A DNA stretch of 64,000 bases from Phyllosticta citribraziliensis (GCF_038025025.1 NW_027117350.1:248001-312000); one strand, 5' to 3'; counted from the first letter of the stretch, positions 20,650 through 27,138 are shown. The notes: generated from the letters alone by a model not told the origin. Translations and numbers: made by a program.

Positions 20650-23414
20650 ATGGCCGACACCATGAGGCCGGTCAGCTTCCTGCCCGGCATCAAGTGTTCG
20701 GATTGTGGCGTCGAGGTGGAAATCTCAATGTTGGCCGACCATGTTTGCGACGGTAACCCAGCTGCGCCATCAGCCGCCTCCGACCCACCACCACCCGCTC
20801 AGGAGGCCAGTCTCAAGTCGATGAGGAGCTTTTTTGACCGCGCAGCTGAGCTATCCACCAATATGCTCAAAGGAGGCCGATCAGCGCCACCGGCCAACAT
20901 TGATTCAAAAGCAGCCAGTGAGTACCTGTCCCGAGGCCCAGGTCAGACCCACTTGAATCCTAACCATTCGCCCCAGACTCTCCATTTCTCGACACCAAAG
21001 GATCTTATCTCGAATCTCCGACCAAGTCCCTCAATCCTCAGGGCGAATTGCTGCCAAGAACACCAAGATCCGGAGCAAGCCGCACTCCTCTTAGCCCTAG
21101 GCCTCCCAAAAGTGGCAATATATTGGAAAGAATGAACGCCATTGCCCCCGGTCCATTTGATAGCCGTGAGAGGAGACCATCGCCGTCCCCCAGACCGTCA
21201 CCAACAAAAACGTCTCGTGATCAATTTCCCGTGGGATCGCTTGGCGCGAGTCCGTTTGATGAGTACGAGAGGAGACCATCACCGCCTCCGAAGGAACCCT
21301 CGCCGCCTCTTCCCAAGAAGGATGAGCCATCTCGAGAGTCTCGCAGCCGGTTCCACAAGAGGTCCGAAACATTGAGTTCTTTGAGGAATCGTTCGAGATC
21401 TCGTCCGTCCACGCGCGGCTCATTTGGAGATTTCCACCGTCGCCATGCGTCTACAGTAAGCTCTGAAAAGCCCCCTCCAGTTGGATTGCCACAAGGGCCC
21501 AAGGCAAGACCAGCTCCCGCCCGGCCAGCGCGGCCCCAAGATGTCGATGCATTTCTTGAGCAACTGCAGGAGGAAAAGACGCCCACGCCCGTTGTTCCAA
21601 GGCCATTGACAATCCGCAAAGAGTCCGTGTCCAAGACTCCAATCTCATTACCACGCAGGCCCTCTGACAAGGTCCCTCAATCACCTCCTCAATTTTCATC
21701 CCCCCCACCATCAAACGACTCGGTTCCGGAGTGGTGGCAAAGCCCGTCCAAAGTTCAGGCCAAAGAAATCTATGTTCCCAGCGAGCGTCTCGAGAGTGAA
21801 AACGCCAGGAGATTTCCTCGCCGAACTTCGAGCAAAGGCGTCAACAACATGCGCCCTGGTTACGAAGACGCTCCGCCCTTGCCCACCGGTCTTCGTCGGC
21901 CTCCCGCGTTGTCGCACGCCCCTTCTGATTCCGCCTCGTCTGAAAGCTCCGGATTCGATGGACGCAGCCGTGACAGCACCAACTCTACCCCTCCCACCTC
22001 GGCTGGCTCCACGCCAACCACAGACTTTTCGACTCGGGCAACCGACAAGAATCCGTTCGTCAACCGCAAGCCGTCCAGCGGAAAGTTGTACGAGCCATAC
22101 CGCGCTGATAACTCCATCGAACGGCCACGGACAGCCAACGGTCGACGGGGTACCGGATCTGAGCGCTCAGTGGCCTCCACTGAACGTCCAGGCACTTCCG
22201 GTAGCCGTCCAGGGACATCGAGTGGAAGACCCGGTACTTCGGACAGCCGTCCAGGAACTTCAAGCAGCCGGGGCAGCCGACCTAGCACATCTCATAGCCG
22301 CACCGCAACTGTGAGCAGCCGTCCAGGTCAAGCACCTCCGGTTCTGTCACCATACGGAAGCGACCGTTCCGAGTATTCGTCCTACGAACGTCCGCGTACC
22401 TCGAATGGTCGGCCAGGAAATGAGCGCCCAAGGATGCCGTACGAGTTTGACGCTCCGGGCTCTCCGCTGCAGCGGTTCGACGCACCCATCGAGCGCCCAA
22501 ACACCTCCAACGGCCCCCGCCTGGCCAACTCGACTTCTCGTCCAAACCTTCGTGCTGAGGAATTGCCTCCAGTGCCTCGCAAGAGCCCGAGCCGACAGAA
22601 TCTGCAGCAAGCAGCACGACCTCCTCCTCCTCCTCCCATCAACACTTCAGTCAATCCTCCTCCCTCTGCCGACGATCCTCCGGAATCCCCAATGGACCCC
22701 GCGATCCAGAAGGGTCTTTTCACTCCAATCACCCTGAGACCGTCGGACTCGTCAGCGTTTCCTGAGATTTCGACCGTGTTTCAGACCGCTGAGAAGCCAC
22801 CAATTCCTCCCATGCCCGTTTCAGCACCAAAATCGCCAGCCAGGCCGCGGGCTGATTCGGCTGGTAGGCGCCCCAGCAGGCCGACCAAGGGCAACTGCCG
22901 TGGATGCGGACAGGCAATTGTCGGTAAAAGCGTCAAGGCGGCTGATGGTAGCCTTTCCGGGCGCTGGCACAAGCAATGTAAGTTTATGCGCCCTGCTCCT
23001 GTTTCACACCTCATACCCGCGCAATGCTGACCCACATCAGGCTTCGTTTGCATGACGTGCCGCGCGCCGTTTGTAACGACCGACTTTTATGTGCTCAAGG
23101 ACCAGCCGTACTGTGCGCGCCACTACCACGAGCTCAACGGATCGCTGTGCTGCAGCTGCGACACGGGGATCGAAGGCCAGTATGTTGAGTCGGAGCGCCG
23201 CGCCAAGTTCCACCCGCAGTGTTTCCAGTGCGGCATCTGCCGCGTGACGCTGCGCGATGACTATTTCGAGTTCATGGGAGTTGCCTACTGCGAGAGGCAC
23301 GCGTTCCACGTTGCGCGCCAGGCCAACAGCGGGCCGGGCAGAGGCGGCATGCTGATGCCCGGTGGCGCCAGGAGAAATCCAGAGAGGAGGCGCACGCGGT
23401 TGATGATGATGTGA
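20650..23414 (+). CDS. LIM-domain protein (paxillin-like): N-terminal Zn-binding motif, long Pro/Ser-rich linker, two C-terminal LIM domains; introns 20918-20976, 22978-23040
   Basis: N-terminal FLPGIKCSDCGVEVEISMLADHVC; LIM1 CRGC...WHKQC/FVCMTC...YCARHYH; LIM2 CCSC...FHPQCFQCGIC...YCERH; ends RRRTRLMMM. Confidence 0.9.
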
Positions 23415-25120
23415 GGGACTTGACGACGCGGTGGGCGACTGCTACTGCCGCCGCTGGAGCAAACGAAAAACTGCCGACGGACGGATCCCAATGTTTTGAT
23501 ACGCCTTTTTTCCGGAGCGATCTTTTTCCTACTACAACTGCTCTTCCTCTTTTGTAAATGCCTTATACCCTATTTCTTACCGATGGACCACCATTGCGGC
23601 GCGCGACGCCCTGCATGGCAATAGCAGCAGCAGTAGCTGCAGACTGCGGTTGGAATGTTCGTTTTTCTTCTGTGTTGCTATACCCACACCATAGCTCTTT
23701 GCCCTACCATTTCCTTATGTCATGTACTGCACCATCATGTGACTGAAAAATTTCATTCTGTTTAATGTGTCATTGGCATGTTGGGTTGATTTGATGGATG
23801 TCGTTGTGGTGGTGTGCATAGGGTCGGCCAGAGAGGCGGTTCGGAATCTGGTTCCCTTGGAGGGCAGGATCGAGTTTAGCGAGCGACGCCGGAATCTGGA
23901 ATCCGACGGCAACAGCTAATGTATATATCGTCCGCAACCTCACCTCTTCCTGCCATCAGACGTATGAGGATGTCGATGCTTCTTGCCATGCTTTCTTGTC
24001 GCCCAACACGTGAAATGGATCACTTGGTACTCCCGTCGACTTCGCCGTCTTGTTCGCTCGTCCTCCACGACCGGTCTTTCGCTGATGGATGAGAAAGACG
24101 ATGATGTTGCTGACATGCTTCTAGACGGTCAATTTTCTTTTCTCTGTTTCCTTTGTCGTCTGCTTGATACCTTGGTGTCTTGGAGAGCTGAAGGTGGTCC
24201 GCTAGAAGCTATCGTCGCGGCTAGCGGACCCCTCTCTACCACGTTTCTTTCAAGTCATTCTCCTTTCCAAGTCGAGAAAAACAAGATCAAAAGCTCCTTT
24301 CCAAAGCCTCTTCCGACCCAGTCGGCTTCTAGAGTCCTTCCCAACGACCACCTGTTCCACCGACATGTTGGTGTTCGCAGCCCCTCACGCTGGGCGGTGG
24401 CTCCCCCTCGGAAAACGCGCGACCGACGGCGGCGGCGGCTGGCGCAGGGCGTCCGGTTATCGACGCAATCGCCGGCGACGGCAAAAGCGTTGGCTAATTG
24501 GCATTACCCACACCGGGTCGCTGATATGAGCGGCAGGCCTGATGAGGATACGTGGCATGCGAAGAGCGTGGAGTTGCGCATGGTCGACAGGCTGCGTCTT
24601 GTTCCGGTGCTCCGGCGCGAAAGGGGACGGTGCCAAGCTGCCGCTGACGTCGCGTGACGGGGCCGAGGAGTACCGCACAGGCGGGAACGAGGGGATGAGG
24701 GGTCTTGTTTACCACTCTGCACCAGCACGCCCGACTCTCTGCACGCCAACAGCTTCTTCTTGGCCAACGGCCTCCTATCGTCCAAAGGCAAACGGCCACC
24801 ATGATGGGAAGCCAATATGGCCTCCCGCGGCTTCCAGGCTCACACGGCTCCGTGCCGTGCCCATTCACCGCGCTTCCGGGAGCGACTCGGTCTCTGGCCC
24901 ATCGAGATCCGCTTGCCATTACATGAGCTAAACTGCACTACCCGTCGGTTTCGGTCTAGCCGGGGCCTCTTATCGGGACCTGGTGGGTGGCTGCATCCTG
25001 CCCGTCCGCGCACATGCACTGCCTGTCCTCCGTTGTGAGCAAATTGTGGGAGCCCCGCTGTGCTTGCGTCGGCACGCTGATGAGCTGATGGGGGGCGGTC
25101 GACGGGAGCCATCGGCAGCG

Positions 25121-25128
25121 TATAAAGA
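25121..25128 (+). promoter_or_regulatory. TATA box of INO1
   Basis: TATAAAGA followed by a pyrimidine-rich initiator region, about 365 bp upstream of the INO1 ATG. Confidence 0.6.
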
Positions 25129-25172: not shown

Positions 25173-25442
25173 ACGCCCAGTCTTTGCTGCCATTGCACCT
25201 CCTGCGCCTTTCCATCTCGTTCGCCGCAAAGACTCAGGGGCCATTGCCCAGAACCAAACATTTTCTCCAACCTTCTCAACTCGTGAGTCGTCTTTTGTCG
25301 CCCGCCATGGACTCGATGTGGTTCAAGGGCTGCAATGCTGTGTGTATCATGTTTTGACGGCGTACGCAGTGTTCACCATCCTTTCGCCGGCCGACGCACT
25401 TCCCCTGCTGGAGGAGCATCGGATTCCCCCTACATCAGATAA
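25173..25442 (+). CDS. Putative non-AUG (ACG) upstream ORF in the INO1 leader, 60 aa, split by intron 25283-25369
   Basis: ACG at 25173, just after the TATA box, opens (M)PSLCCHCTSCAFPSRSPQRLRGHCPEPNIFSNLLN. Removing GTGAGT..TTGAC..CAG gives in-frame S-VHHPFAGRRTSPAGGASDSPYIR-TAA, ending 45 nt before the INO1 ATG. Confidence 0.6.
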
Positions 25443-25487
25443 ACTAGTGCACTGAACCACCCAACCCCGAATCTCTACACATCCAAC

Positions 25488-27138
25488 ATGGCTCCCCACG
25501 CAGACTGCGACGTTGCCAACGGCAATGGCCGCTCGGCTTCTGCCCAGGCCGGCGAAATCTTTGCGGTGAACTCGCCCAACGTGTCCTACACCGACAACGA
25601 AATCAACACCAAGTACACCTACCGCACCACGGCAATCGAGACGGCCGAGGATGGCAAGCTTCTCGCCACGCCCAAGGAGAGTGTGTACGACTTCAAGGTC
25701 GACCGCAAGGTCCCCAAGGTCGGCATGATGCTCGTTGGATGGGGCGGCAACAACGGCACCACCGTCACGGCGGGCATCATCGCCAACAAGCGCGGTCTTG
25801 TCTGGGACACTCGCGAGGGCAAGCAAGCTGCGAACTACTACGGCTCTCTGATCATGGCCTCGACCGTCAAGATTGGCACCGACGCAAAGACCGGCAAGGA
25901 CGTCAACATTCCCTTCAACAAGCTCGTGCCCATGGTCCACCCCAACGACCTCGTGGTTGGCGGATGGGACATTAGCGGCATGAACCTCGCCGAAGCCATG
26001 GACCGGGCTTGCGTGCTCGAGCCGGCCCTCAAGCAGCTCGTCCGCAAGGAGATGACTGGCATGAAGCCGCTTCCAAGCGTCTATTACCCAGACTTTATTG
26101 CTGCCAACCAAGAGGACCGCGCCGACAATGTGCTCCCTGGCTCTGTCGCCTGCTGGGAGCACGTTGAGAAGATTCGCCAGGACATTCGCGACTTCAAGGC
26201 CGCTAATGGCCTTGACAAGGTGATTGTGCAGTGGACTGCCAACACGGAGCGCTATGCCGACATTGTGCCTGGCGTCAACGACACGGCGGACAACCTACTC
26301 GCGTCCATCAAGGCTGGCCATGCCGAGGTGTCGCCTTCGACCGTCTTCGCTGTGGCGTCGATTCTCGAAGGCACGCCGTTCATCAATGGTTCGCCTCAGA
26401 ACACTTTTGTGCCCGGTGCTCTTGAGCTCGCCGACAAGCATTCCGCTTTTATCGGCGGCGATGACTTCAAGTCGGGACAGACCAAGATGAAGTCGGCGTT
26501 GGTCGAGTTCATGATCAACGCGGGCATCAAGCTGACGTCGATTGCATCCTACAACCACCTGGGCAACAACGACGGCAAGAACCTGTCTTCGCAGAAGCAG
26601 TTCCGCAGCAAGGAAATCAGCAAGAGCAACGTCGTCGATGACATGGTGGCCGCCAACCATCTGCTGTACGAGCCCGACGAGCACCCGGACCACACGGTCG
26701 TCATCAAGTACATGCCCGCCGTCGGTGACAACAAGCGCGCCCTCGACGAGTACTACGCCCAAATTTTCATGGGCGGCCATCAGACCATTAGCATCTTCAA
26801 TGTCTGCGAGGATAGCTTGCTGGCTAGTCCCTTGATCATTGATCTGGTGCTCGTGGCGGAGATGATGACGCGCATACAGTGGAGGCGCGAGGACGAGGAT
26901 TTCAAGGGTTTCCACTCGGTGCTGAGCGTTCTGAGCTTCATGCTCAAGGTCAGTCGATTTCATCCATCATCAAAAGCTGTTTGCTAACATTCCTGCCCAG
27001 GCTCCGCTTACGCCGCCCGGCACGCCCGTCGTCAACGCGCTGGGCAAGCAGCGCAACGCCGTCTTGAACATTTTCCGCGCTTGTGTCGGCCTCGAGCCCG
27101 AAAACGACATGACGCTGGAGCACAAGCTGTTTGCTTGA
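25488..27138 (+). CDS. INO1: Myo-inositol-1-phosphate (inositol-3-phosphate) synthase; intron 26949-27000
   Basis: Conserved MIPS blocks [37 protein letters not shown] and [10 protein letters not shown]; the last exon gives [14 protein letters not shown]...LEHKLFA*. Confidence 0.98.

Follow-up and report, generated by a model that had tools for sequence, protein, structure and literature searches.

Leader peptides that sense a metabolite are rare, and each of those described, for arginine, polyamines, ascorbate and sucrose, has been instructive. The arginine attenuator peptide of arg-2/CPA1, conserved in the Ascomycota, stalls its ribosome in response to the pathway end product and keeps scanning ribosomes from the main AUG. 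In yeast, INO1 is subject to transcriptional end-product feedback through Opi1 and Ino2/Ino4 at UAS-INO; to our knowledge no uORF has been reported for yeast INO1, and we know of no well-defined circuit of the Opi1-Ino2/4 type in filamentous ascomycetes. The uORF of plant GGP reportedly begins at an ACG codon, a finding said to be that of Laing and colleagues in 2015.

For the GGP uORF, repression occurs only at high concentrations of the end product and depends on the sequence of the peptide, and the effector, ascorbate, was demonstrated by experiment (PMC11066804). The upstream conserved coding regions (uCCs) of ODC and antizyme-inhibitor (AZIN1) mRNAs employ AUU, UUG or ACG start codons in a good Kozak context; repression requires the peptide and is stimulated by the pathway product, and almost all ODC uCCs carry adjacent prolines near the C-terminus. 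They are found also in the ODC leaders of Pezizomycotina, where they comprise about 100 codons (PMC2811004).

Here we describe a short, intron-split, AUG-less uORF in the leader of INO1, the gene for myo-inositol-1-phosphate synthase, found in a 64,000-nucleotide stretch of DNA (the window) and in related loci; it is apparently undescribed and would constitute a translational switch on inositol synthesis. With the ODC and AZIN1 uCCs, which have been proposed to pair inefficient initiation with a stall that depends on the peptide, the INO1 uORF shares a conserved leader peptide devoid of AUG, a near-cognate start in good context and a position ahead of a committed enzyme. It differs from the ODC uCC in that it shows no sequence likeness, spans only 31-32 codons, is split by an intron and belongs to another pathway with another presumed effector. 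Like the plant GGP uORF, it places a conserved peptide before a controlling enzyme of sugar-derived metabolism; one belongs to plants and the other to fungi, and the peptides are unrelated. The arginine attenuator peptide, in contrast, starts with AUG, has about 24 residues and precedes a different gene, whereas the INO1 peptide has a non-AUG start. Yeast offers the same enzyme with feedback on its expression, exerted there at transcription.

Results and discussion

The INO1 gene and its spliced leader

The main ORF of the locus (Table 1) contains both the NAD_binding_5 and the Inos-1-P_synth domains (PF07994, 440 bits; PF01658, 124 bits; Pfam). Over the first 486 residues it shows 97% identity to a protein cluster that bears the name of the inositol-3-phosphate synthase of Phyllosticta paracitricarpa, with the next-best matches at 82% (Botryosphaeria, Saccharata), and at 532 aa it is just as long as this Phyllosticta protein. 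Going by the INO1 match, the DNA is that of a Phyllosticta-like Dothideomycete.

Table 1. Coordinates of features at the INO1 locus, counted from the first letter of the window.
Feature	Position	Strand	Remarks
5' end of the high-depth spliced X1 INO1 contig	25098	+	adapter letters directly before
ACG and Cys-rich first 29 codons	25173..25259	+	in frame with the uORF, not conserved
Putative initiation context ccaaac, A at -3	25254..25259	+	counterpart of conserved G[TC]CAA[GA] in other loci
Near-cognate start-position codon ATT	25260..25262	+	ACG in 6 related loci, CTG in 1
uORF exon-1 part: start-position codon, six more codons (FSNLLN), 2 bases of a split Ser codon	25260..25282	+	
5'UTR intron, 87 nt	25283..25369	+	GT..AG, phase 2, 4 ATGs inside
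uORF exon-2 part: last Ser base and 23 codons (HHPF, GGASDSP)	25370..25439	+	
uORF stop TAA	25440..25442	+	TAA/TAG at the equivalent alignment position in 8/8
Non-conserved spacer, uORF stop to INO1 AUG	25443..25487	+	45 nt; 17% mean identity
INO1 (myo-inositol-1-phosphate synthase) CDS exon 1	25488..26948	+	Pfam PF07994, PF01658
INO1 CDS intron, 52 nt	26949..27000	+	gap in RNA contigs, GT..AG
INO1 CDS exon 2, to TGA	27001..27138	+	whole protein 532 aa

The earlier note on this DNA had proposed a hidden uORF that opens at ACG 25173, about 50 nt after the TATA box, and that is spliced across an intron at 25283-25369 to give 60 aa ending 45 nt before the INO1 AUG. All of these elements are in the sequence: the ACG (25173-25175) comes 52 nt after TATAAAG at 25121, the frame over 25173-25282 is open for 36 codons plus 2 nt, an 87-nt intron runs from GTGAGT at 25283 to the CAG that ends at 25369, and the join of 25282 to 25370 yields 60 codons closed by TAA 25440-25442, 45 nt before the INO1 ATG. 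The junction is seen in RNA as well. RNA contigs covering the INO1 transcript were examined from four of the 24 runs listed, namely X1 and X2 (identical to the window), X3 (about 95% alike) and X6 (genuine RNA-seq, from a relative with about 93% identity). The interval 25283-25369 is skipped exactly, with GT..AG ends and no ambiguity, in the contigs of X1, X2 and X3, and the X6 contig has a gap at 25283-25371 with two other letters in between, which corresponds to the same intron. Along with the 5'UTR intron the contigs also skip the CDS intron, whose gap was placed at 26947-26998; a placement two positions to the right fits equally well and gives GT..AG. Because the same contigs skip the CDS intron, they represent spliced RNA.

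A single X1 contig spans 25098 to beyond 27250, through the spliced uORF and into the CDS, and the contigs place both 25173 and 25260 inside the INO1 leader. The X1 contig start provides no more than a weak hint of a transcript 5' end, since the contigs of X2 and X3 extend more than 1 kb farther upstream; the promoter region upstream of INO1 is therefore transcribed at some level.

A conserved island coincides with a short ORF

A scan of metagenome contigs with INO1 residues 1-250 returned 18 loci. L011-L014, L017 and L018 extend only 0-268 nt upstream of INO1 and were not counted when presence and absence were compared; the INO1 sequences of L012-L014 and L017 are 56-64% identical to named Pezizomycotina INO1, and L018 is a weak partial match. 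Near-identical loci were merged (L004/L005/L010; L015/L016), and the DNA comparison set consisted of the window and seven distinct metagenomic INO1 loci, eight sequences in all.

When the loci were searched with the spliced 60-codon product, counterparts were recovered only for the exon-2 part and for the final codons of exon 1. A core profile built on these found both parts, in order, in the window, L001-L006 and L008-L010. Of the 12 metagenome loci that reach 600 nt or more upstream of INO1, 10 carry the element, or seven of nine distinct sequences. It was not found by the core profile in L007 or in L015/L016, where 1500 or 645 nt upstream were searched, and the best named INO1 matches of these loci are to Xylona (L007, 76%) and Zalaria obscura (L015/L016, 84%). 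This pattern suggests that the element has been lost in some lineages, in which it would therefore be dispensable. Among the carriers, L002 (1155-1378) has an INO1 99% identical over 257 aa to that of Trichophyton violaceum, and the INO1 sequences of the L004 group and L006 are closest to those of lichen-forming Lecanoromycetes, at only 78-82%, a tentative indication that these loci are Lecanoromycete-like.

Mean pairwise nucleotide identity among the eight sequences rises from 0.37 over the 60 nt before the start-position codon to 0.74 over the 23 nt of the uORF exon-1 part, falls to 0.24 in the 5'UTR intron, returns to 0.60 in the exon-2 part and drops to 0.17 in the spacer to the ATG; the corresponding figure for INO1 CDS nt 200-400 is 0.69. 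The conserved island coincides exactly with the short ORF, its conservation beginning 6 nt upstream of the near-cognate codon in the window and the seven distinct loci, and the similarity of the stretch 25260-25442 is far beyond chance. By this comparison the conserved element is 25260-25282 joined to 25370-25442, and its predicted start is not at 25173.

Substitutions within the element follow the reading frame. Variable sites at codon positions 1, 2 and 3 number 20, 17 and 29 of 32 columns, and the NG86 estimates summed over 28 pairs in the uORF frame are pS 0.678 and pN 0.255 (pN/pS 0.38), whereas shifting the alignment by 1 or 2 nt gives pN/pS values of 1.19 and 1.43 and stops in both frames. 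Four independent pairs, sharing no branch on the INO1 tree, display 52.8 synonymous differences over 96.6 sites against 62.2 non-synonymous differences over 263.4 sites (odds ratio 3.9, Fisher p=5.2e-8), on a sample that is small for all of these coding tests at eight DNA sequences and 31 codons. Multi-base synonymous switches were observed for Ser (TCC/AGT), Leu (CTN/TTG) and Arg (CGN/AGA). Peptide-level conservation, which the earlier note had proposed to check, holds for the last 31 of its 60 codons and does not extend to the first 29.

Anatomy of the uORF and its intron

In the window the uORF comprises 31 codons, its TAA lying 45 nt before the INO1 ATG at 25488, and across all eight DNA sequences its sense codons number 31 or 32, and the intron divides a Ser codon after the second base (TC|N). 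The eight introns measure 87, 168, 107, 144, 105, 146, 90 and 77 nt. These lengths are not all multiples of three, and the frame-preserving length that had been read as a sign of selection does not carry that meaning: it is irrelevant because only the splice phase is conserved (TC|N, 8/8). The uORF stop lies 38-122 nt before the INO1 ATG in every sequence, with spacers of 45, 82, 122, 38, 60, 58, 59 and 52 nt that fall in all three phases. Readthrough into INO1, or an N-terminal extension of the enzyme, is ruled out because the spacer phase varies.

The spliced leader of the window contains no ATG in 312 nt, against about 2.8 expected from base composition, and the spliced interval from the upstream in-frame stop to the INO1 ATG is devoid of ATG in seven of the eight sequences. 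In unspliced RNA of the window the uORF frame stops at once (TCG TGA), as it does in seven of eight sequences (TCG TAA/TGA), and all eight 5'UTR introns contain ATGs, one to four each. Retention of the intron would therefore put a 9-codon uORF and AUG uORFs in place of the conserved uORF, and would probably silence translation of INO1.

The distance from the start-position codon to the exon junction is 21-23 nt in all eight DNA sequences, and each of the 35 spliced database forms implies the same spacing. Exon-junction complexes in animals sit at about this distance; that such splicing marks influence initiation at the uORF start is pure speculation.

Gene models apparently derived from the uORF in public databases

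A profile search of a word-indexed protein collection yielded 14 small NCBI 'hypothetical proteins' of 31-87 aa, with sources in Claviceps, Thermothelomyces (2), Fusarium (4), Purpureocillium, Mycothermus, Monilinia, Botrytis, Talaromyces marneffei, Humicola, Verticillium and Podospora. HMMER, run over 1.84 billion representatives, returned 45 proteins at E<=1e-3, 26 of them at E<=1e-10. In a second word-based search, dominated by the words of non-conserved N-termini, nine matches among 8000 candidates were obtained, adding Alternaria dauci, Plenodomus biglobosus, Thermomyces lanuginosus and two Trichoderma species. Altogether at least 19 NCBI 'hypothetical proteins' (31-179 aa) were found in Sordario-, Leotio-, Eurotio- and Dothideomycetes, class membership having been checked for one species in each.

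In all viewed carriers of the exon-1 motif (a set that excludes P0048, one of the five just added), the motif runs on into the exon-2 part precisely as the predicted splice would have it, and the N-termini are unrelated. These 19 or more public gene models thus appear to be mis-annotated versions of the uORF furnished with spurious upstream ATGs. Counted from the start position to the end, 24 of 39 proteins have 32 aa and 11 have 31 aa; the remaining four continue into the intron or are mis-modelled in some other way. P0040, P0049 and P0050 are models that read through the intron. The last residue is Q in 11, R in 11, E in 4 and another residue in 13 of the 39. Linkage to INO1 is shown for the eight DNA sequences and assumed for the database proteins. 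Judged from the substitution pattern and these matches, purifying selection acts on the uORF peptide in four or more classes of Pezizomycotina.

A near-cognate start position that is never AUG

Six of the eight DNA sequences have ACG as the start-position codon, L001 has CTG and the window has ATT; A stands at -3 in every one. All six Thr codons at this position are ACG, which makes up only 0.17 of Thr codons in the INO1 CDS of those loci, a coincidence of p ~2.6e-5 if the sequences were independent and overstated by their shared ancestry. The tightest bound on the start site comes from L002, in which an in-frame stop only six codons upstream of the ACG leaves little room for any other start. 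Of 39 database proteins with the exon-1 motif, 32 have T at the start position, six I, one L and none M; the preceding residue is K in 32, T in 5, I in 1 and L in 1, and the K, T or I found in 38 of the 39 means that these have A at -3. At +4 all eight DNA sequences have T, and the ATT of the window lies two changes from ACG; initiation at the uORF start may therefore be very weak.

The element shows three of the features by which the uCC class is recognized. A near-cognate codon is conserved in good context, at the 5' edge of conservation, without an in-frame AUG; the coding region shares its mature mRNA with the main ORF but does not overlap or join it (X1 contig; stops in 8/8); and the amino-acid sequence is conserved among orthologous leaders (pN/pS, Fisher test, 45 profile matches).

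Proposed mechanism and alternative explanations

We consider it highly probable, on the comparative evidence, that this is a real, translated and conserved uORF. The best explanation overall, to which we assign a probability of roughly 0.6, is that a non-AUG uORF of the uCC type represses translation of INO1 in cis and in a peptide-dependent manner, by analogy with the described uCCs and, secondly, with the plant GGP uORF. Under such a mechanism most scanning ribosomes would bypass the weak near-cognate start and translate INO1, and the few that initiate there would make the nascent peptide (FSNLLNS, HHPF, GxRxS), which would stall its ribosome within the uORF or at the uORF stop. The stalled ribosome would block or queue its followers and may also boost initiation at the weak start, with the outcome that fewer ribosomes get to the INO1 AUG. 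A stall at termination is not obvious, because the last residues and the stop context vary and Pro-Pro does not occur.

That the stall is tuned by inositol or a derivative is a tentative guess from the role of the gene. Somewhat more doubtful is a fuller version, in which the INO1 leader peptide is a ribosome-borne sensor that, together with inositol, an inositol phosphate or a lipid precursor, would arrest the ribosome. The 31-32 codons would then set a queue of about three ribosomes and hold a scanning subunit on the ACG or AUU, in a self-reinforcing manner, and with the start 21-23 nt before the junction, splicing history could gate the first rounds of initiation. Ivanov and colleagues are said to have put forward a ribosome-queuing model in 2018; the span from start to stop is constant at about 96 nt, approximately three ribosome footprints, and would therefore suit such a model.

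A translated and conserved uORF could also act by something other than a metabolite-tuned stall, as a constitutive damper, as a sensor of stringency or translation state (eIF1/eIF5, eIF5A, eIF2 phosphorylation) or through splicing-linked nonsense-mediated decay. This family of explanations shares the evidence for the best one, and both the start 21-23 nt before an exon junction in 8/8 and the CDS intron downstream of the uORF stop are congenial to it; we nonetheless regard it as unlikely, given that a plain damper has no need of a conserved peptide and that INO1 is the committed enzyme of a pathway that, in yeast, is classically under end-product control.

That the uORF supplies a free 31-residue micropeptide with a role in trans, for instance on the INO1 enzyme or in lipid or inositol metabolism, its leader position serving co-expression only, is distinctly improbable. 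Peptide-level selection is what it would predict, and conservation along most of the length, beyond the C-terminus, agrees with it. Against it, the non-AUG start is never replaced by AUG (0/39 proteins, 0/8 DNA sequences), which implies very low peptide output, and the uORF keeps its place 38-122 nt before the INO1 AUG in all eight loci. The peptide also lacks a hydrophobic segment, the Atlas model made for one example shows no fold (pLDDT 0.40), an ESM Atlas search with one example gave no usable feature match and only short sub-threshold structural look-alikes, and a Pfam search of seven peptides at E up to 10 gave no family for five and, for two, chance-level matches (E 0.045 and 0.16) that fall well short of the cut-offs.

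The reading of the earlier note, in which translation starts at ACG 25173 and the CCxCxxC cluster of a 60-residue peptide is the functional part, sensing metal or inositol, is very improbable and is largely refuted by the comparison. The frame is indeed open between an in-frame stop at 25086 and the TAA, 25173 included, ACG can serve as a near-cognate start and RNA contigs cover 25173, but the conserved element begins only at ATT 25260, where six of the seven other DNA sequences have ACG, and the Cys-rich half supposed to be under selection has no counterpart in the seven distinct element-carrying loci or in the database proteins. In X3 all three differences within 25173-25259 change an amino acid (25224 P>S, 25231 R>I, 25245 C>R), whereas the conserved part has, among the differences listed, a single one (25406), which is synonymous; in X6 separate gaps of 2 nt and 1 nt before 25220 shift the frame across the CCxC cluster, in an alignment made by eye. 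The context of ACG 25173 has C at -3 and C at +4, and ATT 25260 has A at -3. What survives of that proposal is a hidden, non-AUG, intron-split uORF under peptide-level selection; its start does not.

That the conserved island is non-coding, an RNA structure, splicing enhancer or DNA control site with an incidental frame, is scarcely credible, for although its exon-1 part adjoins a 5' splice site that is itself conserved, substitutions track the codon phase of a single frame, the other two frames contain stops and the position of the uORF stop is conserved. Rfam gave no match at E up to 1, RNAalifold found no conserved fold in the eight sequences (consensus -2.1 kcal/mol, 4 pairs), and single-sequence fold z-scores lay between -0.4 and +0.7 for six of the eight, no stabler than shuffles.

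Relation to described systems and significance

The cis-repressing uORF proposed here for INO1 is distinct from the families that it most resembles. Membership of the ODC/AZIN1 uCC family proper was rejected on the lack of Pro-Pro in the eight sequences and the 35 spliced forms and on the identity of the main ORF as INO1. Identity with the arginine attenuator peptide was likewise rejected: Pfam, leader-peptide families included, gave no match, the uORF does not start with AUG and it precedes INO1.

The earlier note had also mentioned a report of a non-AUG upstream coding region for INO1/inl of filamentous ascomycetes. No such report was found in the full texts searched; the note may have had in mind the GGP uORF of plants and the uCCs of ODC/AZIN1. 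More broadly, a full-text search, with subscription papers and supplements outside its reach, found no paper linking fungal INO1 or inositol-phosphate synthase to a uORF. In the text search Ivanov et al. 2017 (PMC5487733) gave no occurrence of 'INO1' or 'inositol', and a 2024 review of microbial uORFs (PMC11550727) contains none of 'inositol'.

The uORF stands before the committed enzyme of inositol synthesis in classes that include plant and human pathogens and industrial fungi, and it provides a route to the control of inositol supply in filamentous fungi, which is poorly known outside yeast. As a compact natural non-AUG uORF it also offers a system in which to study how start codons are chosen and how ribosomes stall. 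Gene-calling programs that insist on AUG will go on missing or mangling it. Should the sensor reading be true, it would add a new pair of metabolite and arrest peptide and could represent the main feedback on inositol synthesis in filamentous ascomycetes.

Other features upstream of INO1

The X1 contig start at 25098 lies upstream of TATAAAG at 25121-25127, the motif that the earlier note had taken for the TATA box. A CACATG E-box occurs at 25011-25016, about 85 nt before the 5' end of the X1 contig, and the loose-end letters of the X6 relative appear to hold CACATG too; this motif is the core of the yeast inositol/choline-responsive element. Farther upstream, long + strand ORFs at 21048-23414 have Cys/His-rich repeats at their ends, which presumably resemble LIM domains.
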